Below are positions 1-63,135 of a stretch of 63,590 bases of DNA, piece after piece. The stretch is taken from the sequence record OR880647.1. The stretch is one strand, 5' to 3'. Both the position numbers and the translations under genes were made by a program. The stretch's first letter is position 1; the number at the start of each line of letters is the position of its first letter. This stretch comes from Escherichia phage ECP2304. The notes under the pieces are model-generated. The model was not told the origin of the DNA and searched no databases. It saw nothing but the letters and a program-made list of their open reading frames with translations.

Positions 1-441
1 GAATAATTTATTCCTACTTGATAGAATAATGGAATCGGTACTCCAGAGCGCAAAAACCTAAAACTTTCAGTCAACAGACTAAAAACGGATAGAAACTAAA
101 AGTTAATAAGTAATAACATAAATATATATAAAATAAGGATTTATTAGTAATGTATATAGTACCTATTGGTATTATTTGAATGTTTTTGGGTCATTGTTAA
201 AAAGTCCCAAAACTCACAAAAAGTGAAAGAATACAATTCGTGACAGGATTGTTAATGGAATAAGGTGTATGGATATACAGTATTATTCCAGATTCCGGAA
301 TAATTGGAATAATGGAATAAATTATTGAACTATTGTGATCGGAAGGTATATCAAGCTATAATGCGCTTAATCGCGGGATATTGGAGGAGGACTTTATTGC
401 GCGGTTAACCGGACCAGTAGGAGGGCTGGCCCGGAAGTAGT

Positions 442-768
442 TTAGAGCTGTACAGGTGTGAAGTGGGCTAGCGTATCGTCGGACATAATACCCGACAGTT
501 TTTCGTTTACCCAGTCGGACCAAATGCTATCCGGTTCCTGGCGGTGCACAAACCAGATTTCGGATGTGCCTTCTTTGCGCATCGGTTGCACTTCTGCAAG
601 GAACTTGTCCTGCATAAGGCGCGTGAAGCAGACGCTGGTCATTGGAACCGGCTTTTCGTCTTTATTGTAATAAGGGACCAATATTTTATTTCCGAAGTCT
701 GCAACTTCATAAACTGTTCCTTTGCGAAGGCCTCTGATGTCAGTGTAAGAGCGGATGAACTTTTTCAT
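442..768 (-). CDS. hypothetical protein (108 aa)
   Basis: ATG start, clean ORF in minus-strand gene string inside repeat. Confidence 0.5.
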   Translation of the reverse strand: MKKFIRSYTDIRGLRKGTVYEVADFGNKILVPYYNKDEKPVPMTSVCFTRLMQDKFLAEVQPMRKEGTSEIWFVHRQEPDSIWSDWVNEKLSGIMSDDTLAHFTPVQL

Positions 769-770
769 AT

Positions 771-947
771 TTATTTCCTTACGAACACAGAGCCGACGAA
801 TAATGTTGATTGAGTTGCAGCTTGCTCGATTAATTCGCCAACAAGCTGGGACTGCGTCAGAGGTTTAAGGCCTTCTTTGGCGCGAGCTTCATTTACACGA
901 CGTTGAAGGTCTTTTAGGTATTGAGTTGCGAAACTATCTAATTGCAT
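771..947 (-). CDS. small hypothetical protein (58 aa)
   Basis: ATG at 945-947 preceded by AAGGA RBS; stop 771-773; below track size cutoff. Confidence 0.4.
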   Translation of the reverse strand: MQLDSFATQYLKDLQRRVNEARAKEGLKPLTQSQLVGELIEQAATQSTLFVGSVFVRK

Positions 948-996
948 CTTCTTATCCTTAGGGCTCCCGCAGAAGCCCGTTGAATGTGGTTATCGA

Positions 997-1146
997 CTAT
1001 AACGCTGCAAACATAAGCAGACGAATATTAACTGAAGTTTGGCTATTAAAGTCTTGACATTCTTTGATAATCTCTTCTTCACTTTTACCACTAAGTTTAG
1101 AATATTCTGTGATTGCTTGTTTTAATACAGAATCAAAATTGTTCAT
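997..1146 (-). CDS. small hypothetical protein (49 aa)
   Basis: ATG at 1144-1146 preceded by AAGGAGG RBS; translated by hand to TAG at 997-999. Confidence 0.45.
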   Translation of the reverse strand: MNNFDSVLKQAITEYSKLSGKSEEEIIKECQDFNSQTSVNIRLLMFAAL

Positions 1147-1156
1147 TTTATCCTCC

Positions 1157-1771
1157 TTATGCGTCCAGACCGTTGTATTTGCGCCAGGCGTAGAACTGAA
1201 TGGCGACAGTTGTTCCGTTGTAAGAAGGCATTGCAGCTTTCATCTCTTTCAGCGCCGGCGTGCGGCCCAGTTCCTTCAGAAGCTTGTCACCCATTGCCCA
1301 CACTTCGGCAGTTTTTCCTTTAAGGGGCTTGCGAGCGCCATTTTTGAAATCGCAGCGAGCAGCTTTTGCATCCTGTTTTGGAGCGGCAGCTTTTGGCTCT
1401 TCAATTTTGATTTCAGAAACCTGCGTGGCAGCTTTTGCGTGTTTCATATCTTTCTCTTCCTCCTGCTCCAAAGCTTTGAGGCAGCTTTTGACGATTTCCG
1501 GATTTACCATCGGGCGCAGTACCGAGGCGCTAGCAGCTGGAGCGGCGGTCGGTGCTGGGGCTTTCTGCTCCGGCTTTTGAGCTTTTTCGTGATCGCGCAG
1601 CACCTGAAGGACTTCCTTTTCGACGATGTAAAAACCGATATCGTCCTGATGGATAAGCTGTTCGTGTGCGTCGCGTGCAACCTGGCCCCAGCGAGTTTTC
1701 AGAGCGCGGCGTGCATTCGTTTTCATGGTGTAGCGCATTTTGTCCTGTTCGCGGTGAGTTACTTTAGACAT
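1157..1771 (-). CDS. hypothetical protein (204 aa), basic N-terminus and Ala/Pro-rich linker
   Basis: ATG at 1769-1771 preceded by AAAGGAG RBS; in-frame with track ORF 1157..1816. Confidence 0.6.
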   Translation of the reverse strand: MSKVTHREQDKMRYTMKTNARRALKTRWGQVARDAHEQLIHQDDIGFYIVEKEVLQVLRDHEKAQKPEQKAPAPTAAPAASASVLRPMVNPEIVKSCLKALEQEEEKDMKHAKAATQVSEIKIEEPKAAAPKQDAKAARCDFKNGARKPLKGKTAEVWAMGDKLLKELGRTPALKEMKAAMPSYNGTTVAIQFYAWRKYNGLDA

Positions 1772-1844
1772 GGTATAGCTCCTTTCGTTAATGTTAGTTT
1801 GCTTATTACTGCCCACCGTAATGATGAGCAGTGTATAAGAAAAC

Positions 1845-2093
1845 TTACTGCACGATTGCTACGAAATCGGCGGTTGCGATATCCATGCTTGCAAACGCTT
1901 TGACGGTGTAGCTGGTATCTGCCGCGGCGTTGAAGTCGCTCAGGAACTGTTGTACCGCGTGCTCATGGTTGAGCATTACGTCTACATTGCAGTCCCAGCT
2001 ATAAACCTTGCGCTGACCGAAACCTTTAACTGCAATACGCGCGCCTTTGGTGTTGGTTGGTGCCAAAAATTTGGTGACGATAGAAGTAGCCAT
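1845..2093 (-). CDS. hypothetical protein (82 aa)
   Basis: ATG with GAGGA RBS. Confidence 0.55.
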   Translation of the reverse strand: MATSIVTKFLAPTNTKGARIAVKGFGQRKVYSWDCNVDVMLNHEHAVQQFLSDFNAAADTSYTVKAFASMDIATADFVAIVQ

Positions 2094-2166
2094 GATGTAA
2101 TCCTCGTTTTGTTTAAGTTGACTTATTATTGCCCAGTCAGATCAACTAGGCAAGATATAAATCAGC

Positions 2167-2391
2167 TTATTTAACCATCAAGGCCCATCTTTTATAGCCG
2201 TTCAGCTCCATTCTATGACCGTGGTCGTTGCAGTAACGTTGGATATTATTAAAGTCGTTATCGTTCATATCGCTGACGTCAATATTAAAATAGTTGCGCT
2301 TTGCAGGTGTAACGTATTGGGATAACTGCATTGAGTACAGATGTTCAATGTTGTCGATAATAGCTTGCTGAACTTTAGTGATAGTAGCCAT
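2167..2391 (-). CDS. hypothetical protein (74 aa)
   Basis: Internal ATG at 2389-2391 preceded by GGAGGTG RBS; track ORF extends to 2451. Confidence 0.5.
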   Translation of the reverse strand: MATITKVQQAIIDNIEHLYSMQLSQYVTPAKRNYFNIDVSDMNDNDFNNIQRYCNDHGHRMELNGYKRWALMVK

Positions 2392-2781
2392 GATACACCT
2401 CCTAATGTGGTTAAGCAGTATTGCTTTGTTGAAGTAATAATAGCCTTGCATCGTGATATTGAATAGGCCAAACGTGCTATTTTGATATTGTTTTGCATCT
2501 AGTGAAAATCATGCTTGTATCGCATATTTAGCACTAATGGCCTAACTAACATCACACGATCTGGTCTACGCGCGTGCATACATACATATAAGGAGTGCCG
2601 GACAGGATCGGACCGACCAGGGGCGCTCAACCGTCTCTGTCCGTCCTGTAAGCTGGTCCCCGGACTGGTCCAAAATATTTTTATAAAAAGATGCAAAAAG
2701 GTGTAGACATATGATCAATCTAACCCTACTATATACACATACCGCAAGGGTACTACAAATTAACTTAAAGGGGTTTACATC

Positions 2782-2985
2782 ATGTCTATTCGTAGCGTTA
2801 TCTGTGTAATGGTTGCAAACAATAATTTTGGTTTCGTAGAAGGTGCAGAGTATAAAATGGATCTTAAGACTCGTTGCATTATTAAAGGTGAAGAGGAATG
2901 GCGTGCAGTGGTAGAAGATCGCGGCGATATCTACATCTATAGTTCTGATACAATGAAAACTATTGCCGTCTTCGAATTTAACTAA
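2782..2985 (+). CDS. hypothetical protein (67 aa)
   Basis: ATG with AAAGGGG RBS; first plus-strand gene after divergent intergenic region. Confidence 0.55.
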   Translation: MSIRSVICVMVANNNFGFVEGAEYKMDLKTRCIIKGEEEWRAVVEDRGDIYIYSSDTMKTIAVFEFN

Positions 2986-3053
2986 GCTAACTTATACAAT
3001 GGGCATTAGTACAGTGCCCATTAATAAGCTAACTAATTATAACGAGGTGTATT

Positions 3054-3239
3054 ATGTCTACGAACACTGTGAAGTCTGTAAATAATAGCAACAGAACATT
3101 TAAAGTTATCTATTATGGCGAATATATTGGAGACGTTACAGCTCCCAGCCGCATCGCTGCGGAAGACTTCGTCCGTACAGAGATGGAGCTTGGAATCGCC
3201 GATTTTGCAGCCATTATCGAACTGGTAGAGGTATTCTGA
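3054..3239 (+). CDS. hypothetical protein (61 aa)
   Basis: ATG with GAGGTG RBS. Confidence 0.5.
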   Translation: MSTNTVKSVNNSNRTFKVIYYGEYIGDVTAPSRIAAEDFVRTEMELGIADFAAIIELVEVF

Positions 3240-3240
3240 T

Positions 3241-3381
3241 ATGCAACGCAAATACACGCTTACACGCGCACAGCACGCGTTATTGATTGCAGCTATGCGC
3301 GCAGAATATGCAGTACACGGCTGGCATAGCGCCATGATGCGAGGTAAAAGCATATATGCAGACATATGCTCGCAAGAATAA
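3241..3381 (+). CDS. small hypothetical protein (46 aa)
   Basis: TGAtATG coupling to upstream gene; hand-translated to TAA at 3379-3381. Confidence 0.35.
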   Translation: MQRKYTLTRAQHALLIAAMRAEYAVHGWHSAMMRGKSIYADICSQE

Positions 3382-3944
3382 CGCACACAGCAGCACCACA
3401 GCGAGCTAAAGCTCAAAGGTAATGGTAATGCATTACCAACACACAATAAGCACGCTGTACCCAGCAAAGCGGCGCTAATTTCAACACTCACAGGCTGTAC
3501 GTTAACGCGTACGGCCTGCTCTGCTATATGCACGCCATGTATATAGCCAGCTCACAATGCACATCAATATAATTACGAATGAAATGGATTCGTCTGGAAG
3601 AATAACAATTCTTACAGTCACAGACCGGTCCAATGAGCCAACTCATAGACCCCACCTAGGATCATCAGGGTACTAATAATCACCCGAGGGCCCTTATCCA
3701 TCCTGATAGTAAGTGCTTGCCTAAATCTTACCCATCACTTTACTATCCACATACATCCATGACCCCACCTACCTTCTTTTTGAATATATTGCGCTCATCC
3801 TTTCTAAATATATGGATTTTGGTAGTAAATTCTGAGTCGTCAACGTATAATCCGTCTTGTAGCTGCCCCATAGCTACCATCTTTAAGCGGATGCAACCAA
3901 TTTCTATCAATTCTCACCAGTTTTAGAGCATCAAGGAGGTATTT

Positions 3945-6411: not shown

Positions 6412-6834
6412 ATGATTAAACACGTCAAGCAACCAACATTGAATACATGCGTTTCTGCGTGTCTAGCAATGATTCTTAATAGACCTGTAGAAGAAGTAAT
6501 TGCGGAATTTCATGATCGATATTACAACAATTGGGAAATAACAATTTCCGAATATCTAGTACAAAACAACGTTGACCACATCTGTTCTGTAGGCGGTGGG
6601 CGTGAAACTATATACATGGGTGGTTTGTTTTTGTGCACTGTCCCAAGTCTCAATGTTCCTGGAGCACTGCATCAGGTTGTGATCGATACAACTAATCACA
6701 AGTTTATTGTACATGACCCGATTAAAGGTTGGGAAGGTAAAAAGTTCTACGTTGGCCCGGATCAAGATCCTGAACAGCCAGGAGCATTTATCATTCATAC
6801 TTGGGTTAAAGACGTTGAGATTGTGCTTAATTAA
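6412..6834 (+). CDS. putative papain-like cysteine peptidase (C39-like)
   Basis: N-terminal QPTLNTCVSACLAMIL resembles the Q...C(G)xACLAMI catalytic-Cys motif of peptidase C39; downstream His residues present. Confidence 0.45.
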   Translation: MIKHVKQPTLNTCVSACLAMILNRPVEEVIAEFHDRYYNNWEITISEYLVQNNVDHICSVGGGRETIYMGGLFLCTVPSLNVPGALHQVVIDTTNHKFIVHDPIKGWEGKKFYVGPDQDPEQPGAFIIHTWVKDVEIVLN

Positions 6835-6896
6835 AAACCTTGCTATCAGATAACCCTTCATTGTATTGTGTACCCATCGAATAAGAGGGGTACACA

Positions 6897-7082
6897 ATGA
6901 CCAAACTATACGCCGGATTGTTTTTATTTGCGACGTTAATGTTCGCTGGACTTTATACCTATACAGTAGTCGAACAACCTTCCACGGTTATCCGAATCTT
7001 TGCAAGTACAGGACTGTGCATCTGTCTTATTCTGTTTGTTTTATGTATTGTTATTATCCAAGACCAAAGGAAAATTAAATGA
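6897..7082 (+). CDS. hypothetical membrane protein (61 aa)
   Basis: Two hydrophobic helices; GAGGGG RBS. Confidence 0.5.
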   Translation: MTKLYAGLFLFATLMFAGLYTYTVVEQPSTVIRIFASTGLCICLILFVLCIVIIQDQRKIK

Positions 7083-7543
7083 CAACCATTGCTTACGATG
7101 GAAAAGTATTAGCTGCGGACCGTGGAGTTATGCGCGGGGAAGTTGTGACTGCATATAAGAAAGTTCACAGCGTAAATGGACATCGTGGCCGCTTCTTGCT
7201 GGGCTTGTGCGGTTTGACTGCATTTACTGATCAGGTGTTGCGCTATTTTAATAGTCCTGAGCCTGTTAAGTTCCCAGATATTAAAGTTTACAGCAAAGAT
7301 GACGATTATGGGCAAACTTGCGGTCTTGCTGTTACTCCGGAAGGTACTTGCCATTTTATTTATAATGATGGTACTTTGAGCGAACCCATGCTGGATGGAT
7401 GGGGGTCGGATGGTAGTGGCTGCGTGTTTGCTGCGGGTGCTCTAGCTGCTGGTGCAAGCGCACGCGAAGCTATCGAGCTAGCAATCAAGCATACTACATG
7501 TGCATTTCTTGGCGTTGATACAATATCGTTTGAGGGTTTTTAA
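7079..7543 (+). CDS. putative Ntn-hydrolase, HslV/proteasome-like
   Basis: Starts MTTIAYDG (Thr right after Met as in HslV MTTIV); GSDGSGCVFAAGALAAG resembles HslV GSGGPYAQAAARAL. Confidence 0.45.
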   Translation: MTTIAYDGKVLAADRGVMRGEVVTAYKKVHSVNGHRGRFLLGLCGLTAFTDQVLRYFNSPEPVKFPDIKVYSKDDDYGQTCGLAVTPEGTCHFIYNDGTLSEPMLDGWGSDGSGCVFAAGALAAGASAREAIELAIKHTTCAFLGVDTISFEGF

Positions 7544-7804
7544 ATGACTACATTCAGTCACCTGATCCCACCTGCTTATCACAGCAAGGTAGTTGACCAC
7601 GGGACGCATGTTGTAATTGGTGGCGAAATCTTTATCACAGATAACGAGGAAATCGCCATTGCAATTATTGACAGCACTCAGCATGACTTTATGGTTATCC
7701 TGCAACACGAACCCGATAACTTCACTTTTTACTCCAGCTACGGGGTCGATAAAGGTGGAAAAAGCCTTGTTAGCTGGTACATTAGCGAGTGGTTTGACGG
7801 GTAA
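7544..7804 (+). CDS. hypothetical protein (86 aa)
   Basis: Clean ORF. Confidence 0.5.
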   Translation: MTTFSHLIPPAYHSKVVDHGTHVVIGGEIFITDNEEIAIAIIDSTQHDFMVILQHEPDNFTFYSSYGVDKGGKSLVSWYISEWFDG

Positions 7805-7886
7805 TCTCCTTAGATCAATTCTCCTTGCGCCGTATCAAGTTTCTCTGTTACCCTTCAGTGGTTCATGTCAAGCGGAGGAACTCGAT

Positions 7887-8324
7887 ATGGCGCTTCAACC
7901 TCGTGGTATTCGTAACAACAATCCAGGTAACATTCGCTGGGGTGATAATTGGCAGGGATTGGTCCCTGTTGATAAGCGGACCGACAAATCTTTTGCACAG
8001 TTCACGCAACCGATTTACGGCATCCGTGCTCTAGCTAAAGTCCTGACCAACTACACCAAACGCGAAGGCTTGCCCAATGTGGGTAAGAAAAACATCGACA
8101 CTGTACGTGAAATTATCGCTCGCTGGGCCCCGCCTAATGAAAACGATACGGAAGCGTATATTCGTTCTGTTGCCAAAGCAATTGGTGTTCAACCTAACGA
8201 TCCAATTAATGTCTTCGACAAGACGATAATGTCAGGTTTGGTGAAAGCAATCATTCGTCATGAAAATGGCATGATGCCTTATACTGATGACGTGATCGAC
8301 CGCGCTATTGCAATGGTAATTTAA
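7887..8324 (+). CDS. putative endolysin (soluble 146-aa protein at head of lysis cassette)
   Basis: ATG at 7887 after GGAGGA; lies directly upstream of holin-like and spanin genes; function by context only. Confidence 0.4.
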   Translation: MALQPRGIRNNNPGNIRWGDNWQGLVPVDKRTDKSFAQFTQPIYGIRALAKVLTNYTKREGLPNVGKKNIDTVREIIARWAPPNENDTEAYIRSVAKAIGVQPNDPINVFDKTIMSGLVKAIIRHENGMMPYTDDVIDRAIAMVI

Positions 8325-8360
8325 CTGATGGGGCGTCAGCCCCTTTTTATTGGAGGGAAC

Positions 8361-8705
8361 ATGTTCAACTCATCGAACGAACATTGGGCAGTTCTAGCGG
8401 GGTTTGCTCTGATTTCCCTCATTGGGGGAGCTCTCGGTTACGTCATGCGTACAATTGACGCTGGTAAGAAGGTACGGATAAGCATTGCATGTCTTGAAGG
8501 CTTATCTGCCGCGTTCTTCGGCGTTATAATGTACGCGATCTACAGGGAGTTTAATATCAGCCTTTGGTTCGCTTTTGGCCTTGCTGGCCTATTCGCTTGG
8601 GCGGGTTCACGTGCTACGCTAAAAGCTCTAAAGTCGCTTCTAGCATCGCGGACAGGGATCAAACTCGACTCAGAGGACTGCAAACATGAAAATGATTCTA
8701 AATAA
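8361..8705 (+). CDS. putative holin (multi-TM membrane protein)
   Basis: ATG at 8361 after GGAGGG; about three hydrophobic segments; between endolysin candidate and spanins. Confidence 0.5.
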   Translation: MFNSSNEHWAVLAGFALISLIGGALGYVMRTIDAGKKVRISIACLEGLSAAFFGVIMYAIYREFNISLWFAFGLAGLFAWAGSRATLKALKSLLASRTGIKLDSEDCKHENDSK

Positions 8706-9162
8706 CTTCTTCGGCTTTATAAAAGCTAAACCGCGTCTGTTTATCGAGTATTTGATGATCGGCGCGGTAGTGTTTTTATGCGGGGTAGCTGCCTACCTGT
8801 GGTCACAGAACGAGCTTAACAAATCAAATTTAAGTTTGGCTGAAGAACGTTTAACCGTTGTGGAGAAAGACAATGCAAAGCTGGGCGAGGCTGTTGTATT
8901 TCTTGCTGCACAAAGGGAGAAGGACACGGACTCTTTCAAGAAACTAACTTCTGCAATTCAAGATGAACAACATAACCACAAGTTGCTTCAGGACAAGTTG
9001 CAGACACTGGAGAAAAGCAATGCTGACGTCAAAGCTTATCTTAACGAGCGTATTCCTGATGATTTGCGCAGGTTGCTCGACGCAAACTCAACCTCCTCCA
9101 GCTCCACAGATAGTGAAGGTAAGACTACCCGCACATCTACTGGTGGAATGTCGGGAAGTTGA
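8686..9162 (+). CDS. i-spanin (Rz-like)
   Basis: N-terminal TM helix then coiled-coil; o-spanin embedded in +1 frame. Confidence 0.65.
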   Translation: MKMILNNFFGFIKAKPRLFIEYLMIGAVVFLCGVAAYLWSQNELNKSNLSLAEERLTVVEKDNAKLGEAVVFLAAQREKDTDSFKKLTSAIQDEQHNHKLLQDKLQTLEKSNADVKAYLNERIPDDLRRLLDANSTSSSSTDSEGKTTRTSTGGMSGS

Positions 9163-9325
9163 GAAAATTCCTTTGGTTTACACAAGAGATATTATCCGAC
9201 GTTTACAGGATACAGAAACTGCTCTGACTGAATGTAAGCTAAGGGTTAAGGAAATCATACGCTATGAAGCTGAAAATGTTTCGCTTGATTTTGTAGGATC
9301 AAGCAATTATATTCAGCCTAAATAG
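9020..9325 (+). CDS. o-spanin (Rz1-like outer-membrane lipoprotein)
   Basis: ATG 9020 in alternative frame of i-spanin; signal-like MLTSKLILTSVFLMICAGC with lipobox-like Cys followed by Pro-rich STQTQPPPAPQ. Confidence 0.6.
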   Translation: MLTSKLILTSVFLMICAGCSTQTQPPPAPQIVKVRLPAHLLVECREVEKIPLVYTRDIIRRLQDTETALTECKLRVKEIIRYEAENVSLDFVGSSNYIQPK

Positions 9326-9345
9326 CAATAAGAAGGGGAGCTTCC

Positions 9346-9903
9346 ATGAACGGGGCAAGTCAAGAGCAATATGATCGTGACTGGACGAACTATATCCAGT
9401 ATGCAAATAGCTTGTCCGCTGACGAGATGGCAATACGTGACAAAGTTGTTGCTGAGTATATGTTCGACTACAATTGGACTAACGCTTGCATGAGATGCGG
9501 GTTCAATGCTATGTTTGCACAGGAGCTTGGCCAACGCTTTGCCACGGACTGTTACGTTCGATGGAAGCTCAAGGAGATTGAAAGATCCCGTGTTCAACGT
9601 ACTTCTGAGCAAGCTAACATTGAAGCAGACCTAGAGCGTCAGCATATCATTGAAGCATTAAAACGTGAAGCTCATTATACAGGACCGGGATCTTCTCAAG
9701 CTGCTAGAGTAGCCGCATTGGGCAAGCTTGCACAAATTTATGATTTGGATGCGCCCAAGAAGGCTAAAATTGATGTTACTAACAGAGGCGGCGTAATGAT
9801 AGTCCCTGCTGTAGCAAATATTGACGAATGGGAAAAAAATGCATCCGAGTCTCAACAACGACTAGTTAAAGAGACTGAAGATGGAGCTAAACCGACAACC
9901 TGA
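9346..9903 (+). CDS. putative terminase small subunit
   Basis: 185-aa ORF immediately upstream of and overlapping terminase large subunit. Confidence 0.45.
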   Translation: MNGASQEQYDRDWTNYIQYANSLSADEMAIRDKVVAEYMFDYNWTNACMRCGFNAMFAQELGQRFATDCYVRWKLKEIERSRVQRTSEQANIEADLERQHIIEALKREAHYTGPGSSQAARVAALGKLAQIYDLDAPKKAKIDVTNRGGVMIVPAVANIDEWEKNASESQQRLVKETEDGAKPTT

Positions 9904-27147: not shown

Positions 27148-27169
27148 AAACGGGGCCCATGCCCCGTTT
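27148..27169. terminator. bidirectional terminator between convergent genes
   Basis: AAA-CGGGGC-CCAT-GCCCCG-TTT, flanked by A and T runs. Confidence 0.65.
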
Positions 27170-28136: not shown

Positions 28137-28260
28137 AATTACTCCAACAATGTGGTTAAAGATGGTAGACAATATTGTTTTATATTCTAATTTAATTTAC
28201 CATATTTGTATGCCATAGTGCATCCATTAATTGATCAACTCTGCGAAACAAGAGGTAAAA

Positions 28261-39139: not shown

Positions 39140-39736
39140 TTATTTACAAGCTTCTAGGAACTCACGGCGCCAAATATAACCATTCTCCGTCTCAATACCA
39201 AATTCACCAGTGGCTGTCGCACCGCGAAATGCTTTAGTGATAGTAGAGCTTCCGCATACCTGCTTAACACCGCGCGACTCCATGCACATATGCTTGGCGT
39301 CAATATAAACACATACAGCTTTCGGGTTTAAATGCTCTTGAATAGCGTCTGCAATCTGGTTAGTAAGACGTTCCTGAACTTGCAGTCGACGACTAAAAGC
39401 ATCCACAACGCGAGACAGCTTACTAAGCCCAACGATCTTCCCATTGGGGACATAACCCACAACAGCATGACCGATGATAGGAGCCATATGGTGTTCACAA
39501 TGGCTGTATACAGGAATATCACGGACAATGACCATTTCATTGGTGTTTTCCGCCCCGTCTTCAAAGGTCTTAAACAGACCAGCAATATCTACATCGTAAC
39601 CGCCGAACCATGTAGCATAGGCTTTGGCTACACGTGATGGAGTTTCTTGTAGACCTTGACGTAGAGTAGGTGAAGCATGGTCTTCAATATTAAACAACAG
39701 GGACATCACAGCGTTTTCAACAGCTTTAATATTCAT
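39140..39736 (-). CDS. folE: GTP cyclohydrolase I
   Basis: CEHHM and GLSKL motifs; 198 aa. Confidence 0.8.
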   Translation of the reverse strand: MNIKAVENAVMSLLFNIEDHASPTLRQGLQETPSRVAKAYATWFGGYDVDIAGLFKTFEDGAENTNEMVIVRDIPVYSHCEHHMAPIIGHAVVGYVPNGKIVGLSKLSRVVDAFSRRLQVQERLTNQIADAIQEHLNPKAVCVYIDAKHMCMESRGVKQVCGSSTITKAFRGATATGEFGIETENGYIWRREFLEACK

Positions 39737-39771
39737 GGTTTGCAGTTTCCTTGTTTGTTAATGTGGTCATA

Positions 39772-40308
39772 TTACAGGCTATAGTTTACGTGACATTTCG
39801 AAGTTTCTTCGATGGTGCATTCTACAAGTTGAACACCATGTTCGTCAAGCAGTTGGGGGCCAATCACGTTAACCATATATGCAGCTAAGTTTTCCGCAGT
39901 TGGGTTGAATGGTAAGGACACTAACGAATTAAAGAAGTGGTTTTCATCTTCTTTATCTATAGCATCGTCATCAAAATTGTTTCGATCGAAGATAATTAAT
40001 GTCTTCAAACCATCGATAAGATTATCCTTTTCCCAATGCAGGAATTTATGATCCCAGTTATCTTCCAGCCATTGGCAGAGCGTAGTTTTAACCACACTAA
40101 AATCAATAACGCGCCCAACATCGTCCAGTTTACCTTCAACGGAGAAACCTTTCGCGCCCGGGATGTAGTTTTCGCTTTCTACGCGCTTCGGCGCAACCTT
40201 AAAATGAAACTTATAGTTGTGACCGTGAAGATGACGACACTTGCTTTCATGTCCTACAACACGATGTCCAGCACAAATTTCATGTGAACGAATTACTGTA
40301 TAGCTCAT
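39772..40308 (-). CDS. queD: 6-carboxy-5,6,7,8-tetrahydropterin synthase
   Basis: CxGH...HGHNY motif. Confidence 0.75.
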   Translation of the reverse strand: MSYTVIRSHEICAGHRVVGHESKCRHLHGHNYKFHFKVAPKRVESENYIPGAKGFSVEGKLDDVGRVIDFSVVKTTLCQWLEDNWDHKFLHWEKDNLIDGLKTLIIFDRNNFDDDAIDKEDENHFFNSLVSLPFNPTAENLAAYMVNVIGPQLLDEHGVQLVECTIEETSKCHVNYSL

Positions 40309-40309
40309 T

Positions 40310-40579
40310 TTAATCCTCTTCTACTCTATTCATAAATTCCAAATAACGACGCATAGTTTCTTCTTTTGTGGAAGAATTAAAATGCGACCAACCGTTATCT
40401 AACGAATAACCCCAGTAATACTCACCATACTTCTTCCGCATAGCTGGGATGGGGCATTTCCTTCTTTCAAGCTTAGGATTCTGCGATCTTATATACGCTT
40501 GTTTTTCTTTAAGGCTTAATGCTTCAAACCAATCAGCTTGCTCGTGTGGCTTTAAATGACTTGGAGGTACAGGAATCAT
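40310..40579 (-). CDS. hypothetical protein (89 aa)
   Basis: Clean ORF inside modification cluster. Confidence 0.5.
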   Translation of the reverse strand: MIPVPPSHLKPHEQADWFEALSLKEKQAYIRSQNPKLERRKCPIPAMRKKYGEYYWGYSLDNGWSHFNSSTKEETMRRYLEFMNRVEED

Positions 40580-41154
40580 TTTAACACCTCTTTAGATTGT
40601 TCGATTTCTAACGCACGCTGTGCAGACGCAATAATGTCTTTCAAATCTTCTACCAGACTTTTATGACCGCGTTCGCCAGGCTGCAACGCCTTTTTAATCA
40701 AATGTTGTAAAGCTGGGTTAGTCGTTTTCCAAGCTTCCAAGACATCATACACGTCCACGATGCATTTTACAACATTGCCGTTTTGATCTTTACCATAAAT
40801 AACTTTCTGGTATTTGTTTAGATTGTCGTCTTTATTCATAACAGATCGTATATCCCAATCCTTTCCGTATACGCCCAGTCCATCAATAGCGAAACTTTCA
40901 GAAGTCACTTTAAATCCATTTTCACCGGCTTGTCTAACGTAATCTTCTGCGACAATATAACGCCAAGATATAACCGAATCCCTTTCTAACGGTATTACGT
41001 TATCACAGGATTTTTTATACCAGTCCCATCCTTGCCTATGATTTTTCTTAAGAGAACCGTCAGCTAATTGAACTTCAAACTGTTCGTTTTGAAGAAAAAT
41101 GGGCATTCCTTTCCCATCATGCTTGTGCCAAATTTTATTAAGATTATCTTTCAT
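40576..41154 (-). CDS. hypothetical protein (192 aa)
   Basis: Clean ORF inside modification cluster. Confidence 0.5.
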   Translation of the reverse strand: MKDNLNKIWHKHDGKGMPIFLQNEQFEVQLADGSLKKNHRQGWDWYKKSCDNVIPLERDSVISWRYIVAEDYVRQAGENGFKVTSESFAIDGLGVYGKDWDIRSVMNKDDNLNKYQKVIYGKDQNGNVVKCIVDVYDVLEAWKTTNPALQHLIKKALQPGERGHKSLVEDLKDIIASAQRALEIEQSKEVLK

Positions 41155-41156
41155 TT

Positions 41157-41636
41157 TTACGCTCTCGCTGTACGTGAATGAACTTCATAAACAACCCAAA
41201 GGATGGCAGATGCTGTGAACTTACTTAAGCTCATTGCTACCATTGATCCCGGATTAACAATACCTATAATACTTAAGAACACAATGGAGTCAATCGGTAC
41301 AGCTACCAAAGAGCTAATAAATACACGTTGATGAAACGGCTTCTTAGTAATCGTGTATACCGCATAGTCCGCAAACTCGCTAAGAGCAAAGGATGCAACG
41401 GATGCAACTACAACAGCAGGATCCCCGAATACCCAGCTAAGGACACAACCAATAATCATTGCAGGGATAACACCTTTGCCAGCATTACGCTGTGCGTAGT
41501 CGCGCAACACAAAGATAATACCTACAAAGAAAGCCATCATGGGGACTACGCCAAGAGGCGTGTTAAGCATTGGAAGGTAGGAAAAGCCCAGGTTCACGAA
41601 TGTAATTGCAGCCAGATAAGCAACGATAAATTTCAT
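41157..41636 (-). CDS. putative queuosine-precursor transporter (YhhQ-like)
   Basis: ATG 41634-41636 after GGAG; multi-TM protein resembling E. coli YhhQ segments by eye. Confidence 0.45.
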   Translation of the reverse strand: MKFIVAYLAAITFVNLGFSYLPMLNTPLGVVPMMAFFVGIIFVLRDYAQRNAGKGVIPAMIIGCVLSWVFGDPAVVVASVASFALSEFADYAVYTITKKPFHQRVFISSLVAVPIDSIVFLSIIGIVNPGSMVAMSLSKFTASAILWVVYEVHSRTARA

Positions 41637-41756
41637 ACTTTTGTTCTCCAGTTTTAACAGCGTTATTCGCTGGTTGTTGGGTTTAAAAGCTTTAGTAGTA
41701 TAGTTGGGTTCCCGCACCCTAAACAATGCGCTAGCGGTGCGGTTTTCGCGGTAAGA

Positions 41757-42479
41757 TCAAACGTGTTTGCTGTAAGCGTTATCCATAAATTCGCTGTACC
41801 CTTTAGCACGTAGTTTGCACGCAGGACATTCACCGCAACCATATCCCCAGTCATGCAGAGTGCGACGGACGCCGTTATAGCAAGTATGGGACTGTTCAAT
41901 TACTGTGGTTAAGAAACCAACCTTATCCGCTAGCTCAAACGTTTCTGCTTTATTTAAACGCATAAGCGGGGTAACGAAATGAATATCTGTTTCATATCCA
42001 ACGTTTAACGTAGCTTCAAGCAAGTCTACAAACTGCTGGCGGCAATCTGGATAACCGCTATAGTCTGTTTCACAAACGCCCGTAACCACATATCGGGCGC
42101 CAACTTTCTGTGCGTAGGCGTGCGCGGTAGTCAGGAAAAGAGCATTACGGTTTGGCACAAAGCTTGCCGGAAGGTTGTTGTGCTGTTCGTGATGTTCGTT
42201 AACATCACCTTCGTCCCCGATTAAAGCGCTATTCCCAATCTGTTTCAAAGCAGGTAATTCAAAGACAACAAATGGGACATCGTGCTCTTTACAAATTTGA
42301 TTAGCACAAGCCAGCTCAATGTTATGACGTTGACCGTATGCAAAACCAATAGCGTAAACCTTATCATAGTTATTAAGTGCAAGACCTAAACAGGTCACGC
42401 TGTCCTGGCCGCCAGACAGGACGACAACGGCGGAGTTATGATTTTTTACAGGGAACACCAGTTTATCTAATTTATTCAT
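41757..42479 (-). CDS. queC: 7-cyano-7-deazaguanine synthase
   Basis: PP-loop SGGQDS; C-terminal zinc Cys cluster CGECPAC; ATG at 42477-42479. Confidence 0.8.
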   Translation of the reverse strand: MNKLDKLVFPVKNHNSAVVVLSGGQDSVTCLGLALNNYDKVYAIGFAYGQRHNIELACANQICKEHDVPFVVFELPALKQIGNSALIGDEGDVNEHHEQHNNLPASFVPNRNALFLTTAHAYAQKVGARYVVTGVCETDYSGYPDCRQQFVDLLEATLNVGYETDIHFVTPLMRLNKAETFELADKVGFLTTVIEQSHTCYNGVRRTLHDWGYGCGECPACKLRAKGYSEFMDNAYSKHV

Positions 42480-42480
42480 C

Positions 42481-42669
42481 TTAGAACCCTTTAAGGCTAA
42501 TATTAAGATTAACGACCACTTGTTCAACTACATCATCAGATGTCATCTGACGCTTATGAATTTCAAGCTCCGAATGTATGTTCTTTGATGCAGCACGACA
42601 GATAGCGTCATTCAGCTCGTCTTGTAAACGTTGCATCTTCTGCATAAGAATCACAGTTTCTTCATTCAT
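42481..42669 (-). CDS. hypothetical protein, tandem paralog A (62 aa)
   Basis: Similar to adjacent 42662..42874 product. Confidence 0.5.
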   Translation of the reverse strand: MNEETVILMQKMQRLQDELNDAICRAASKNIHSELEIHKRQMTSDDVVEQVVVNLNISLKGF

Positions 42670-42874
42670 CTTCTACACCTTTAATATCACAAGGATTAAT
42701 TGTTACATTTGACATCACAATTGGATGATTGCGTGCCCCGATTGTGCTAACGTGATTAATATCTAATTCTACATGCACGCCCTGCATGGTAGCGTGAGCA
42801 ATTGCAGAATTAAGTTTTTCTACCAGCTCAGTGATCATTTCCTGATGCTGTTTCGCTTCTTCCAAAGTGATCAT
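42662..42874 (-). CDS. hypothetical protein, tandem paralog B (70 aa)
   Basis: GAAGGTGA RBS; similar to 42481..42669 product. Confidence 0.5.
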   Translation of the reverse strand: MITLEEAKQHQEMITELVEKLNSAIAHATMQGVHVELDINHVSTIGARNHPIVMSNVTINPCDIKGVEDE

Positions 42875-43127
42875 TTCTTTTCACCTTCACTAATGTTTGT
42901 TTATAATCCATACCTTCAAGGTCAACTTCTGCCATTTCACAAAAGTTATTATCCTCCCAGTATGGTGTCCATTTAGTTTGACCATCCCTCAATGTTGGCT
43001 CATACTCGAATCCATAAATTGTACCGTCTTGATCCGTAGCTAGCCACCATACCCATTCAGGGACATCAAGCTTATTGCCAAAATATTCAACTTCTTTAGT
43101 ATGCACAACCTGACTTAACACACGCAT
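42828..43127 (-). CDS. hypothetical protein, third member of paralog family
   Basis: Shares motifs with 4187..4438 and 5013..5309. Confidence 0.55.
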   Translation of the reverse strand: MRVLSQVVHTKEVEYFGNKLDVPEWVWWLATDQDGTIYGFEYEPTLRDGQTKWTPYWEDNNFCEMAEVDLEGMDYKQTLVKVKRNDHFGRSETASGNDH

Positions 43128-43834
43128 TATTCCACCCCGATATATTTGTGAACCTGAAGCTGCAATGTGTACCCGTGTTTCATACAGCTTTGGACAACCG
43201 CTTGAATGTTACTGTGGTTAAGATCTTCATCCTGCTCGTCCATTGGCTGTAAATATATCTTACCCTTGAACCCCTTCGGAGGTCTAGCGATAAATGGCGT
43301 AGCCTGATGATCTAATGCTTGAAGAGGTAAACCATCTTCCACGTTTACACAGCACGCTTTAAGTACATATTTAAATGCATTAGCGCGGTACAGCACAGAA
43401 GGATGAATCTTTGAGGTCTTAGGACTACATACAATCACAGGCAACTGGGAAAAGTTCTTAGGTAAAGGCATAGACCCATTAGTTTCAATTTGCACCAAAT
43501 AGCCGCGCGATAACAGTTGTTGAATAAACGGGTTAATTTGCTGACGGAACGGTTCACCCCCAGTAATAACCACAAGTGAGGTGCTATTGCCTGATTCCAG
43601 CTTACGGCTTTCAATTAAACGCATGATATCAACAATGTGATATTTGGTGCGACCGTTGGTATAGTCAGTATCACAGCCCGGACATTGCAGGTTACACCCA
43701 GCAAGACGCACAAATACAGCAGGCTGGCCGCAGAATGGCCCTTCACCTTGAATGGTAGAGAATACCGAATGCACGTCTAAATACATATCGTTTTCTTTAG
43801 AACGAGACTCGGGAGCTTGTTGATTAATATTCAT
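43127..43834 (-). CDS. queE: 7-carboxy-7-deazaguanine synthase (radical SAM)
   Basis: TIQGEG, CNLQCPGCDT cluster, ITGGEP, ETNG; AGAGGA RBS. Confidence 0.8.
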   Translation of the reverse strand: MNINQQAPESRSKENDMYLDVHSVFSTIQGEGPFCGQPAVFVRLAGCNLQCPGCDTDYTNGRTKYHIVDIMRLIESRKLESGNSTSLVVITGGEPFRQQINPFIQQLLSRGYLVQIETNGSMPLPKNFSQLPVIVCSPKTSKIHPSVLYRANAFKYVLKACCVNVEDGLPLQALDHQATPFIARPPKGFKGKIYLQPMDEQDEDLNHSNIQAVVQSCMKHGYTLQLQVHKYIGVE

Positions 43835-59787: not shown

Positions 59788-60336
59788 ACCCTAACACCCA
59801 AATCCCGACTGTTAGTAAAAAACGTATATAAATCAATAGCATAGATACTAAATGAATAGTGATTGGAATGGGTAGAAATCCAAATGATGGAAGTGGAATA
59901 ATTTATTCCTACTTGATAGAATAATGGAATCGGTACTCCAGAGCGCAAAAACCTAAAACTTTCAGTCAACAGACTAAAAACGGATAGAAACTAAAAGTTA
60001 ATAAGTAATAACATAAATATATATAAAATAAGGATTTATTAGTAATGTATATAGTACCTATTGGTATTATTTGAATGTTTTTGGGTCATTGTTAAAAAGT
60101 CCCAAAACTCACAAAAAGTGAAAGAATACAATTCGTGACAGGATTGTTAATGGAATAAGGTGTATGGATATACAGTATTATTCCAGATTCCGGAATAATT
60201 GGAATAATGGAATAAATTATTGAACTATTGTGATCGGAAGGTATATCAAGCTATAATGCGCTTAATCGCGGGATATTGGAGGAGGACTTTATTGCGCGGT
60301 TAACCGGACCAGTAGGAGGGCTGGCCCGGAAGTAGT

Positions 60337-60663
60337 TTAGAGCTGTACAGGTGTGAAGTGGGCTAGCGTATCGTCGGACATAATACCCGACAGTTTTTCG
60401 TTTACCCAGTCGGACCAAATGCTATCCGGTTCCTGGCGGTGCACAAACCAGATTTCGGATGTGCCTTCTTTGCGCATCGGTTGCACTTCTGCAAGGAACT
60501 TGTCCTGCATAAGGCGCGTGAAGCAGACGCTGGTCATTGGAACCGGCTTTTCGTCTTTATTGTAATAAGGGACCAATATTTTATTTCCGAAGTCTGCAAC
60601 TTCATAAACTGTTCCTTTGCGAAGGCCTCTGATGTCAGTGTAAGAGCGGATGAACTTTTTCAT
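60337..60663 (-). CDS. hypothetical protein (repeat copy of 442..768)
   Basis: Identical duplicate in right repeat. Confidence 0.5.
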   Translation of the reverse strand: MKKFIRSYTDIRGLRKGTVYEVADFGNKILVPYYNKDEKPVPMTSVCFTRLMQDKFLAEVQPMRKEGTSEIWFVHRQEPDSIWSDWVNEKLSGIMSDDTLAHFTPVQL

Positions 60664-60665
60664 AT

Positions 60666-60842
60666 TTATTTCCTTACGAACACAGAGCCGACGAATAATG
60701 TTGATTGAGTTGCAGCTTGCTCGATTAATTCGCCAACAAGCTGGGACTGCGTCAGAGGTTTAAGGCCTTCTTTGGCGCGAGCTTCATTTACACGACGTTG
60801 AAGGTCTTTTAGGTATTGAGTTGCGAAACTATCTAATTGCAT
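60666..60842 (-). CDS. small hypothetical protein (repeat copy of 771..947)
   Basis: Identical duplicate. Confidence 0.4.
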   Translation of the reverse strand: MQLDSFATQYLKDLQRRVNEARAKEGLKPLTQSQLVGELIEQAATQSTLFVGSVFVRK

Positions 60843-60891
60843 CTTCTTATCCTTAGGGCTCCCGCAGAAGCCCGTTGAATGTGGTTATCGA

Positions 60892-61041
60892 CTATAACGC
60901 TGCAAACATAAGCAGACGAATATTAACTGAAGTTTGGCTATTAAAGTCTTGACATTCTTTGATAATCTCTTCTTCACTTTTACCACTAAGTTTAGAATAT
61001 TCTGTGATTGCTTGTTTTAATACAGAATCAAAATTGTTCAT
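60892..61041 (-). CDS. small hypothetical protein (repeat copy of 997..1146)
   Basis: Identical duplicate. Confidence 0.45.
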   Translation of the reverse strand: MNNFDSVLKQAITEYSKLSGKSEEEIIKECQDFNSQTSVNIRLLMFAAL

Positions 61042-61051
61042 TTTATCCTCC

Positions 61052-61666
61052 TTATGCGTCCAGACCGTTGTATTTGCGCCAGGCGTAGAACTGAATGGCG
61101 ACAGTTGTTCCGTTGTAAGAAGGCATTGCAGCTTTCATCTCTTTCAGCGCCGGCGTGCGGCCCAGTTCCTTCAGAAGCTTGTCACCCATTGCCCACACTT
61201 CGGCAGTTTTTCCTTTAAGGGGCTTGCGAGCGCCATTTTTGAAATCGCAGCGAGCAGCTTTTGCATCCTGTTTTGGAGCGGCAGCTTTTGGCTCTTCAAT
61301 TTTGATTTCAGAAACCTGCGTGGCAGCTTTTGCGTGTTTCATATCTTTCTCTTCCTCCTGCTCCAAAGCTTTGAGGCAGCTTTTGACGATTTCCGGATTT
61401 ACCATCGGGCGCAGTACCGAGGCGCTAGCAGCTGGAGCGGCGGTCGGTGCTGGGGCTTTCTGCTCCGGCTTTTGAGCTTTTTCGTGATCGCGCAGCACCT
61501 GAAGGACTTCCTTTTCGACGATGTAAAAACCGATATCGTCCTGATGGATAAGCTGTTCGTGTGCGTCGCGTGCAACCTGGCCCCAGCGAGTTTTCAGAGC
61601 GCGGCGTGCATTCGTTTTCATGGTGTAGCGCATTTTGTCCTGTTCGCGGTGAGTTACTTTAGACAT
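61052..61666 (-). CDS. hypothetical protein (repeat copy of 1157..1771)
   Basis: Identical duplicate. Confidence 0.6.
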   Translation of the reverse strand: MSKVTHREQDKMRYTMKTNARRALKTRWGQVARDAHEQLIHQDDIGFYIVEKEVLQVLRDHEKAQKPEQKAPAPTAAPAASASVLRPMVNPEIVKSCLKALEQEEEKDMKHAKAATQVSEIKIEEPKAAAPKQDAKAARCDFKNGARKPLKGKTAEVWAMGDKLLKELGRTPALKEMKAAMPSYNGTTVAIQFYAWRKYNGLDA

Positions 61667-61739
61667 GGTATAGCTCCTTTCGTTAATGTTAGTTTGCTTA
61701 TTACTGCCCACCGTAATGATGAGCAGTGTATAAGAAAAC

Positions 61740-61988
61740 TTACTGCACGATTGCTACGAAATCGGCGGTTGCGATATCCATGCTTGCAAACGCTTTGACG
61801 GTGTAGCTGGTATCTGCCGCGGCGTTGAAGTCGCTCAGGAACTGTTGTACCGCGTGCTCATGGTTGAGCATTACGTCTACATTGCAGTCCCAGCTATAAA
61901 CCTTGCGCTGACCGAAACCTTTAACTGCAATACGCGCGCCTTTGGTGTTGGTTGGTGCCAAAAATTTGGTGACGATAGAAGTAGCCAT
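61740..61988 (-). CDS. hypothetical protein (repeat copy of 1845..2093)
   Basis: Identical duplicate. Confidence 0.55.
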   Translation of the reverse strand: MATSIVTKFLAPTNTKGARIAVKGFGQRKVYSWDCNVDVMLNHEHAVQQFLSDFNAAADTSYTVKAFASMDIATADFVAIVQ

Positions 61989-62061
61989 GATGTAATCCTC
62001 GTTTTGTTTAAGTTGACTTATTATTGCCCAGTCAGATCAACTAGGCAAGATATAAATCAGC

Positions 62062-62286
62062 TTATTTAACCATCAAGGCCCATCTTTTATAGCCGTTCAG
62101 CTCCATTCTATGACCGTGGTCGTTGCAGTAACGTTGGATATTATTAAAGTCGTTATCGTTCATATCGCTGACGTCAATATTAAAATAGTTGCGCTTTGCA
62201 GGTGTAACGTATTGGGATAACTGCATTGAGTACAGATGTTCAATGTTGTCGATAATAGCTTGCTGAACTTTAGTGATAGTAGCCAT
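62062..62286 (-). CDS. hypothetical protein (repeat copy of 2167..2391)
   Basis: Identical duplicate. Confidence 0.5.
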   Translation of the reverse strand: MATITKVQQAIIDNIEHLYSMQLSQYVTPAKRNYFNIDVSDMNDNDFNNIQRYCNDHGHRMELNGYKRWALMVK

Positions 62287-62880: not shown

Positions 62881-62948
62881 GCTAACTTATACAATGGGCA
62901 TTAGTACAGTGCCCATTAATAAGCTAACTAATTATAACGAGGTGTATT

Positions 62949-63134: not shown

Positions 63135-63135
63135 T

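Follow-up and report, generated by a model that had tools for sequence, protein, structure and literature searches.

The sequence analysed here, referred to below as the window, is a 63,590-nucleotide stretch of Escherichia phage ECP2304 (OR880647.1), which is a Seuratvirus (Queuovirinae) coliphage according to megablast. The interval 7887-9325 contains four consecutive genes, a hairpin and a dual-coding stretch:

7887..8324, + strand: endolysin, 145 aa; stand-alone Enc34-type (PHA02564) lysozyme-like catalytic domain, without signal peptide or transmembrane segment
8330..8351, + strand: terminator-type hairpin GGGGC-GTCA-GCCCC followed by TTTTTATT, from a terminator scan; function putative
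8361..8705, + strand: holin of the LydA type (Phage_holin_3_3), 114 aa; hydrophobic in three segments, with a charged C-terminal tail
8686..9162, + strand: i-spanin, 158 aa; membrane anchor at the N-terminus, long helix in the periplasm, conserved VKAYLNERIPDDLRRLLD motif, disordered Ser/Thr-rich tail
9020..9162, + strand: dual-coding stretch, 143 nt; frame 0 encodes the i-spanin C-terminus, frame +1 the predicted o-spanin signal peptide and the Pro-rich region
9020..9325, + strand: o-spanin precursor, 101 aa; predicted signal peptide, putative lipobox CAGC, Pro-rich stretch, two conserved periplasmic Cys (44, 72)

A preliminary description of this DNA had read the interval as an endolysin-holin-spanin cassette of four consecutive genes, and this reading is borne out by four Open Reading Frames (ORFs) at these coordinates and a family match for each. 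The spanin genes adjoin and overlap each other, 3' of the holin and endolysin genes. Using megablast, the nucleotide identity of the cassette is 98.9% to phiG7, 97% to CSP1 and 91% to the BASEL Seuratviruses, in which the genes are labelled 'putative endolysin, holin, i-spanin, o-spanin'. At the protein level, the identity to CSP1 is 97% for the endolysin, 100% for the holin, 97% for the i-spanin and 99% for the o-spanin. The published Seuratviruses (phiG7, CSP1/CSP1C, CAjan, Seurat, BASEL Bas21-25) contain the identical four genes in the same order with 91-99% nucleotide identity, and there is no difference of substance. The locus is an ordinary lysis cassette; E. coli viruses of this type have been sequenced before, and all its components belong to described families. 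A promoter scan found sites no more common than in shuffled sequence.

Endolysin and holin

The endolysin gene is preceded by a Shine-Dalgarno sequence (GGAGGA) 8 nt upstream of its start. The gene stands as first described, while the length given for its product (146 aa) includes the stop codon and has to be corrected to 145 aa. A domain search of 7887..8324 was blank in the Pfam and NCBIfam profiles, neither of which has a model for this domain, and the protein was placed via PHROGs, a PDB sequence search and a fold search. It matches PHROG 873 'endolysin' (3.6e-63) and, over residues 5-130, chain A of PDB 7Q47 (phmmer, E=1.7e-33), which is the domain of Hafnia phage Enc34 ORF39. The AF2 model (pLDDT 88.4) contains six helices, and this all-helical fold resembles the alpha-lobe of lysozyme; Foldseek aligned it with 7Q47 at TM 0.85-0.86 (E=2.5e-15), the second-best match being at E=0.12. 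The two proteins are alike in fold (TM 0.85), have about 43% identity, and correspond in the N-terminal RGIRNNNPGNI, in HENG, which holds the proposed catalytic Glu, in the Trp of RWAPP and in a Tyr. Glu126, Trp80 and Tyr91 align with Glu131 (proposed catalytic), Trp79 and Tyr95 of Enc34, and all three are invariant across 19 homologues. From the above, the N-terminal motif left unplaced in the preliminary description is assigned to the Enc34-type domain (PHA02564), and the endolysin call, made there on context, now has direct support from the 7Q47 match, the fold and the conserved Glu, Trp and Tyr.

The catalytic domain of Enc34 (ORF39deltaC) was muralytic in turbidity assays and lyses E. coli, P. 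aeruginosa and H. alvei cells whose outer membrane has been permeabilised, with no substrate complex obtained; the Enc34 and chivirus homologues are the endolysins of their lysis cassettes (PMC8943055). The protein studied here is a member of the Enc34-domain family, but it does not have the full-length architecture of the Enc34 and chivirus enzymes. Those enzymes carry a C-terminal two-helix membrane domain with which holin-free lysis is possible, whereas here a bare 145-aa domain lies beside a classical holin. Its C-terminus comes 13 residues past the Pro-Tyr that follows the HENG motif, the maximum 19-residue hydropathy is 0.78, and neither end is hydrophobic.

Homologous domains are also contained in ejection and tail proteins, such as PHROG 7182 'tail injection transglycosylase', the tape measure proteins of PHROG 2276, K1F-type gp16 and the 1295-aa Gp29 of PDB 9vvp, and database entries for the stand-alone form are often named 'structural protein', in several records 'structural protein P5'. 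The 145-aa protein could accordingly be mainly a virion-borne peptidoglycan hydrolase for DNA entry and not an enzyme of lysis from within. We consider this improbable, because the protein stands alone, 36 nt upstream of the holin and spanin genes, in a gene order (endolysin-holin-spanin) that E. coli Seuratviruses share with Hafnia phage yong3; its Enc34 and chivirus homologues serve in lysis cassettes, and the CSP1 orthologue is employed as an endolysin together with the holin (PMC13577005). The preliminary description had left room for a different endolysin elsewhere, but no second muralytic candidate was found in the window proteins examined or in the annotation of the relative WildeMaa. 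In the whole window there is no paralogue of the endolysin, and no lytic domain was detected in the tape measure, tail-tip, fibre and neighbouring proteins; in WildeMaa, no other lysin is listed in the first 50 kb, and the rest of its lysis region lists only the endolysin gene.

The holin matches Pfam PF16083 with 39.8 bits (cut-off 28.4) and PHROG 785 'holin' at 4.8e-24. Its hydropathy peaks near residues 10, 42 and 64, and its tail contains Lys, Arg, Asp and Glu. The ATG at 8361 has GGAGGG 3-4 nt ahead of it. A start at 8328 was rejected: the ATG is replaced by ACG in WildeMaa and STP-SP5, and the codon sits in the hairpin. Dual starts at 8328 and 8361, as in the lambda holin, were dismissed likewise, the upstream ATG being neither conserved nor equipped with a Shine-Dalgarno sequence.

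The genes CSP1_091 'endolysin' and CSP1_092 'holin' of PMC13577005 are probably the orthologues of the first two genes here; the three-helix holin described in that paper is consistent with this. According to the accessible part of the paper, co-expression of the CSP1 holin and endolysin with three suppressor genes caused no lysis until dinitrophenol collapsed the proton motive force, after which lysis was rapid; lysis of E. coli by holin and endolysin alone is implied there but not stated outright. The CSP1 holin interacts with CSP1_021 and is classed by the authors as class I (PMC13577005). The product names in the CSP1C GenBank record are shifted by one gene.

Since a holin is dispensable for lysis by those Enc34-type endolysins that have a C-terminal membrane domain (PMC8943055), a pinholin route was also considered, in which depolarisation would be all that the small membrane protein does and the endolysin would get to the periplasm unaided, as proposed for membrane-anchored Enc34 and M4Lys. 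This route is very improbable here, and more so than a virion-borne role, as the endolysin has no hydrophobic segment at either end and thus nothing to carry it across the membrane, whereas the holin has three hydrophobic segments, a LydA family match and, for its CSP1 counterpart, a class I assignment (PMC13577005). An endolysin without a membrane segment should depend on the three-helix LydA-type holin.

The hairpin between endolysin and holin

The hairpin lies in the 36-nt gap from the endolysin stop to the holin start. Its stem is invariant in all seven Seuratvirus loci compared (7/7), including yong3, whose flanking sequences differ, while the loop is variable (GTCA, GTTA or TTCG). The motif also ends two other gene blocks in the window (27149-27168 and 32812-32831), and in total it gives 5 strand hits in the window versus 0.09 expected. 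The folding energy is not significant against shuffled sequences (z = -0.87), so that the case for the hairpin is made by conservation and motif recurrence, not by energy. Another fold, masking the holin Shine-Dalgarno sequence by pairing CCCCUU with GGAGGG, was dropped because it is unable to form in yong3.

The hairpin may function as an intrinsic terminator or attenuator, in which case the endolysin would be transcribed with the upstream genes, and the holin and spanins only by read-through together with the late terminase and structural genes. We regard this as a tentative proposal, rather doubtful at present. If it is true, the hairpin would add a transcriptional layer of lysis timing that is undescribed for the Seuratvirus group, and this layer would act alongside the lysis-suppression genes CSP1_020-022, homologues of two of which are present at 30625-31772.

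The overlapped spanin genes

The i-spanin was described earlier at 8686..9162 with a transmembrane segment; the coordinates hold, and a hydrophobic anchor and a mostly helical periplasmic domain are modelled. Its first 20 nt lie within the 3' end of the holin gene. The sole strongly hydrophobic stretch, the membrane anchor, covers about residues 18-40 and contains the only Cys (32); the hydropathy peak spans residues 14-41 and is preceded by K13, K15 and R17. In the AF2 model, a long helix (16-122) and a short helix (125-133) are followed by a Ser/Thr/Gly tail (137-158) with pLDDT below 50, which is predicted to be disordered. The protein matches PHROG 89 'Rz-like spanin' (2.6e-11), while its score against the LysB equivalog TIGR03495 (32.4 bits, E=9.9e-8) is under the cut-off of 92.75; judged by sequence, it is a distant relative of LysB and not an equivalog.

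The o-spanin starts at 9020, has a lipoprotein-like signal and a Pro-rich mature region, and continues 163 nt after the i-spanin stop, exactly as in the preliminary description. Its start has GGAG 8 nt upstream, and its N-terminus, in the +1 frame, reads MLTSKLILTSVFLMICAGC followed by STQTQPPPAP. The sequence features are MLTSK, a hydrophobic core and CAGC followed by S. Cys19 is the predicted lipidated residue, with Ser (no Asp) at +2, which would give a mature protein of 83 aa. Lipobox patterns such as [LVI][ASTVI][GAS]C and the older PROSITE pattern do not fit CAGC at -3, where Cys is outside the usual consensus; P2 LysC has the identical CAGC. The family matches are Pfam PF23793 LysC (45.3 bits; cut-off 27), NCBIfam NF038368 P2_Rz1 (29.1 bits; cut-off 27) and PHROG 456 (1.7e-14). 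A word-indexed protein search found only 4 close relatives, and tblastn against phage genomes extended the homologues to yong3, Erebus, Bhz54, PRD1-like phages and Torfinnsbu. Both periplasmic Cys (44 and 72) recur in P2 and, among these phages, in yong3, Erebus, Bhz54 and the PRD1-like group, and are candidate residues for intermolecular disulfides. No solved structure related to the o-spanin was found. A start at 8963 was discarded because it is not conserved: relatives have an intervening stop codon or no ATG there.

The substitution pattern distinguishes the two frames. In two relatives, position 3 of the i-frame receives 25/50 and 51/91 substitutions in the part encoding the i-spanin only. 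In the overlap, position 3 of the o-frame receives 12/20 and 11/22, and in the part encoding the o-spanin only, 7/10 and 20/35. The substitutions therefore switch at 9020, from i-frame position 3 upstream to o-frame position 3 onward. Within 9020-9080 both frames are conserved, with 4 substitutions versus WildeMaa; from 9083, most changes leave the o-spanin residues unaltered and replace residues of the i-spanin tail. Both frames are under selection, and purifying selection acts on the o-spanin frame, which is more than a chance ORF.

In relatives, the o-spanin is annotated short (153 nt in phiG7, CSP1 and CSP1C; 186 nt in BASEL phages), which might mean that no 101-aa lipoprotein is made from the +1 ORF at 9020 and that the product is the short 3' ORF (50-61 aa) or none. 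We find next to nothing to recommend this, the least probable of the alternatives considered: the short ORFs are without the signal peptide and lipobox needed by every o-spanin, whereas the full ORF with its GGAG, ATG and lipobox persists in homologues with as little as 44-45% identity and in P2 LysC, the family models align from residue 8-14 on, selection on the o-spanin frame starts at 9020, and the KS_A3 record already calls a 100-aa form.

In the terms of the field, the P2-type arrangement is 'overlapped' and the lambda-type 'embedded' (PMC6139136). The word 'embedded' in the heading of the preliminary description has to be replaced, as the o-spanin is not wholly inside the i-spanin gene and the pair is of the P2 type, not the lambda type; the text under that heading had described the overlap correctly. 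P2 LysB/LysC overlap in the +1 frame as here (146 nt in P2, 143 nt here), and in both cases the ATG arises from aATG within an Asn codon and CAGC lies over the i-spanin motif P-D-x-[LV]-R-R-L, followed by a Pro-rich mature o-spanin start. However, the o-spanins are only 33% identical, the i-spanin match is barely detectable by BLASTP, the i-spanin here is below the LysB equivalog cut-off, there is no LysA homologue, and the gene order is endolysin to holin here but holin to endolysin in P2. PRD1 P36/P37, an Rz/Rz1-like pair from a tectivirus, has o-spanin homology (29% identity, E ~1e-3), the same +1 register and the aATG start, but the lipobox is FAGC instead of CAGC, the overlap is 80 nt, and the virus belongs to a different realm; P36 and P37 are reported to be accessory lysis proteins (PMC6356626, citing Krupovic 2008). 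Side-by-side dual translations place the +1 register also in yong3, Erebus, Bhz54, PRD1-like phages and P2. In the TGC codon of the -3 Cys, TG closes an i-spanin Leu codon and C opens the Arg codon after it, in the conserved LRRLL motif, and dual coding with this motif would explain the odd Cys.

Lysis pathway and significance

We consider it very likely that this Seuratvirus coliphage cassette works through the canonical three-step pathway for Gram-negative hosts, in which enzyme activity, hole formation, lipidation and membrane fusion would be those of the respective protein families. The soluble 145-aa endolysin, with Glu126 as proposed catalytic residue, would, for want of an export signal, build up in the cytoplasm. 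The LydA-type holin (114 aa) would gather in the inner membrane until, at a programmed time, it opens holes big enough to free the endolysin onto the peptidoglycan. The spanin genes overlap in the P2 LysB/LysC manner, the o-spanin being read in the +1 frame: the i-spanin would be anchored in the inner membrane, the o-spanin would be an outer-membrane lipoprotein, lipidated at Cys19 following signal peptidase II cleavage, and as a complex the two would bridge the periplasm and disrupt the outer membrane after wall removal. The lambda S-R-Rz/Rz1 system follows the same three steps and also has a class I-like holin with three helices; it differs in having Rz1 wholly inside Rz, a dual-start holin, another endolysin family and another gene order.

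The cassette is nearly identical to deposited, partly tested ones, and its value lies mainly in curation. The formerly unplaced motif gains a home in the Enc34-type domain, for which the structure is solved and the activity measured and which has no Pfam or NCBIfam model. The minor new details are the truncated o-spanin annotation in relatives and the conserved endolysin-holin hairpin. Most Seuratvirus GenBank records omit or truncate the 101-aa o-spanin, lacking its 5' half, or label the i-spanin 'lysis regulatory protein'. Dual coding fixes the odd lipobox Cys (-3) across LysB/LysC-type spanins of very different phages, and a stand-alone Enc34-type domain beside a classical holin invites comparison with the holin-independent export of membrane-anchored Enc34 and M4Lys.

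Gene structure of the lysis cassette

The lysis cassette that the preliminary description had observed at 7887–9325 was confirmed, and our ORF check found all four reading frames at the positions it had given.

Genes of the cassette
7887–8324, + strand: endolysin, 145 aa, with Shine-Dalgarno sequence GGAGGA upstream
8361–8705, + strand: holin, 114 aa, with GGAGGG before the conserved ATG at 8361
8686–9162, + strand: i-spanin, 158 aa, its first 20 nt lying within the 3′ end of the holin gene
9020–9325, + strand: o-spanin, 101 aa, in the +1 frame

These gene structures are established in this analysis. Two alternative starts were rejected by comparison with related phages. The holin reading frame is open from 8328, where the ATG is ACG in WildeMaa and STP-SP5, lacks a Shine-Dalgarno sequence and lies within a hairpin. 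The ATG at 8963, upstream of the o-spanin, is not conserved: a stop precedes 9020 in WildeMaa and STP-SP5, and CSP1 has no ATG there.

By terminator scan, the 36-nt endolysin-holin spacer contains a hairpin, GGGGC-N4-GCCCC followed by a T-run (8330–8351), whose stem is invariant and loop variable in 7 of 7 Seuratvirus loci, including that of yong3 (Hafnia phage) with differing flanks. The folding energy of the spacer hairpin is not significant by itself. The motif has 5 strand hits in the window (0.09 expected), with two-way copies at two further gene-block ends.

Further hairpin copies
27149–27168: two-way copy, 3′ of the tail-tip gene
32812–32831: two-way copy, beyond the last listed + strand ORF (32305–32589), near the point where the WildeMaa map turns to the − strand

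The motif looks like the standard intrinsic terminator of this phage; if it is, holin and spanins would be transcribed via read-through.

Endolysin and holin

The preliminary description called the endolysin from context and could not place its N-terminal motif. The call is now backed by PHROG 873 (“endolysin”; 3.6e-63) and by PDB entry 7Q47 (E=1.7e-33 in PDB sequence search). This entry, the endolysin catalytic domain of Enc34 (a Hafnia phage), is also the sole fold match of the AlphaFold model (19 homologues, pLDDT 88.4; TM 0.85). Pfam and NCBIfam were also searched, and neither has a model for the 7887–8324 protein. In the work of Cernooka et al. (PMC8943055), the Enc34 domain, which belongs to family PHA02564, caused lysis of E. 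coli, P. aeruginosa and H. alvei cells with a permeabilised outer membrane; Glu131 was proposed to be catalytic, with Trp79 and Tyr95 conserved. These residues align with Glu126 (IIRHENG), Trp80 (RWAPP) and Tyr91 here, all invariant among the 19 aligned homologues, and members of this family share the motif left unplaced, RGIRNNNPGNI, as their conserved N-terminus. Family membership, fold and conservation of the putative catalytic residues are established on these grounds. The Enc34-type family (>4,500 clusters; 793 phage records) includes stand-alone proteins of ~145 aa, chivirus forms with a C-terminal membrane domain, and modules in ejection or tail proteins.

No second lysin was found in the sequences covered: the window holds no paralogue, no lytic domain was detected in its tape measure, tail-tip, fibre or neighbouring proteins, and the WildeMaa annotation lists no other lysin in the two stretches read, the first 50 kb and the lysis region (~6.7 kb apart). 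Hydropathy analysis found no hydrophobic segment in the endolysin, which should therefore need a hole-forming holin.

The holin scores above the gathering score of Pfam Phage_holin_3_3 (LydA type), also matches PHROG 785, and has three hydrophobic segments followed by a charged C-terminal tail (hydropathy). Its identity to the holin of CSP1 is 100%, and it is probably the counterpart of the three-helix class I holin of the CSP1 paper, whose description fits the 114-aa protein. According to this paper (PMC13577005), lysis is held back by three further genes of the phage (CSP1_020 to CSP1_022), the block is lifted by dinitrophenol, CSP1_021 binds the holin, and CSP1_021 and CSP1_022 belong to the reported lysis-suppression (antiholin) set. 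Homologues with 98% nucleotide identity are present in the window.

Homologues of CSP1 genes
30625–31332: CSP1_021
31404–31772: CSP1_022
31788–32318: CSP1_023

The tail fibre gene 5′ of the CSP1_021 homologue (28231–30453) is mosaic and mostly unlike its CSP1 counterpart, which is also needed for lysis suppression according to the same paper (PMC13577005).

An overlapped spanin pair

The i-spanin matches PHROG 89 (Rz-like; 2.6e-11) and, under the equivalog cut-off, the LysB model TIGR03495 (32 bits). Its predicted model has a membrane anchor continuing into a single long helix (16–122), then a short helix on the conserved DDLRRLLD, and ends in a Ser/Thr/Gly tail that is disordered. The o-spanin exceeds the cut-off of 27 for both Pfam LysC (45.3) and NCBIfam P2_Rz1 (29.1). 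Its precursor is MLTSKLILTSVFLMICAGC|ST, with a predicted mature protein of 83 aa that has a Pro-rich start and two conserved Cys.

The overlap is 143 nt, and the o-spanin extends 163 nt past the i-spanin stop, as first described. By the definitions of Kongari et al. (PMC6139136), the pair is therefore “overlapped” (P2 type), not “embedded” (lambda type); the earlier interpretation is supported as to a four-gene lysis cassette and corrected in this label.

Frame selection is established by the distribution of substitutions. In 8686–9019, i-spanin codon position 3 takes 25 of 50 substitutions against WildeMaa and 51 of 91 against STP-SP5. The o-spanin position 3 takes 12 of 20 and 11 of 22, respectively, in 9020–9162, and 7 of 10 and 20 of 35 in 9163–9325. 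The first 60 nt of the overlap are almost unchanged, with both frames conserved, while changes in the remainder are mostly silent in the o-spanin frame and replace residues in the i-spanin tail, so identity to WildeMaa is 80% for the i-spanin and 90% for the o-spanin.

Dual translations showed that a single conserved register is shared by the window, WildeMaa, STP-SP5, yong3, Erebus (Aminobacter phage), Bhz54 (Stenotrophomonas phage), PRD1-like tectiviruses and P2. Among these phages, the o-spanin ATG is aATG inside an i-spanin Asn codon (gATG in an Asp codon in Erebus), and the predicted lipobox overlies the i-spanin motif P-x-x-[LIV]-R-x-[LV]-L. The lipobox CAGC is identical in P2 LysC, so Cys at −3 characterises the family rather than being peculiar to ECP2304; it arises because the i-spanin Leu-Arg codons tTG Cgc give TGC in +1. 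In PRD1-like i-spanins, Ile-Arg (atT Cgc) results in Phe at −3. PRD1 P36 and P37 are described as accessory lysis proteins in PMC6356626 (citing Krupovic et al. 2008).

The last 15 o-spanin residues are not conserved (comparison loci L005 2258–2310 and L006 2001–2261): the protein is 86 aa long in yong3, and a one-base frameshift falls at this place in Salmonella phage STP-SP5. By this comparison, the C-terminal tail is probably dispensable.

Phage type, public annotation and probable lysis pathway

By nucleotide search, 34 phage records match 7500–9500, with identities of 98.9% for phiG7, 97% for CSP1 and CSP1C, and 91–92% for CAjan, Greed and BASEL Seuratviruses; these named relatives are Queuovirinae, genus Seuratvirus. 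The 7-deazaguanine DNA modification set typical of Queuovirinae is also in the window, and together with the sequence matches it places the cassette in a known phage type. Four small genes within 6412–7804 precede the cassette.

Genome context
39140–43834, − strand: 7-deazaguanine set (GTP cyclohydrolase I, QueD-like PTPS, QueC, radical-SAM QueE-like enzyme, YhhQ/Vut_1-like transporter)
6412–6834: weak C39-peptidase-like protein
6897–7082: 61-aa protein with two hydrophobic segments
7079–7543: HslV-family peptidase-like protein (PHROG 1040)
7544–7804: 86-aa protein of no assigned family

Bases 1–3695 exactly repeat 59896–63590 (3,695 bp, at the window ends), giving a unit genome of 59,895 bp; the duplication is this genome read beyond its start point, through circular/permuted assembly or terminal redundancy.

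All parts of the cassette fall into known families, the phage genus is a known one, and public annotation is present but imperfect. Most public records with the cassette limit the o-spanin to a 153- or 186-nt 3′ fragment. In phiG7, WildeMaa, CSP1 and CSP1C these fragments are without signal peptide or lipobox, and the i-spanin is often labelled “lysis regulatory protein” or “hypothetical”. In the CSP1C record PQ202980.1 (988–2426 of the locus), product names are shifted by one gene (endolysin “hypothetical”, holin “endolysin”, i-spanin “holin”, the HslV-like name on the next gene), which may mislead its users.

Overall, the cassette most likely serves the standard three-step lysis pathway, in which the cytoplasmic endolysin would exit via holin holes, the wall would be degraded, and the spanin complex would then disrupt the outer membrane. 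We infer these biochemical steps from what the protein families do and from studies of CSP1, Enc34, P2, PRD1 and lambda.
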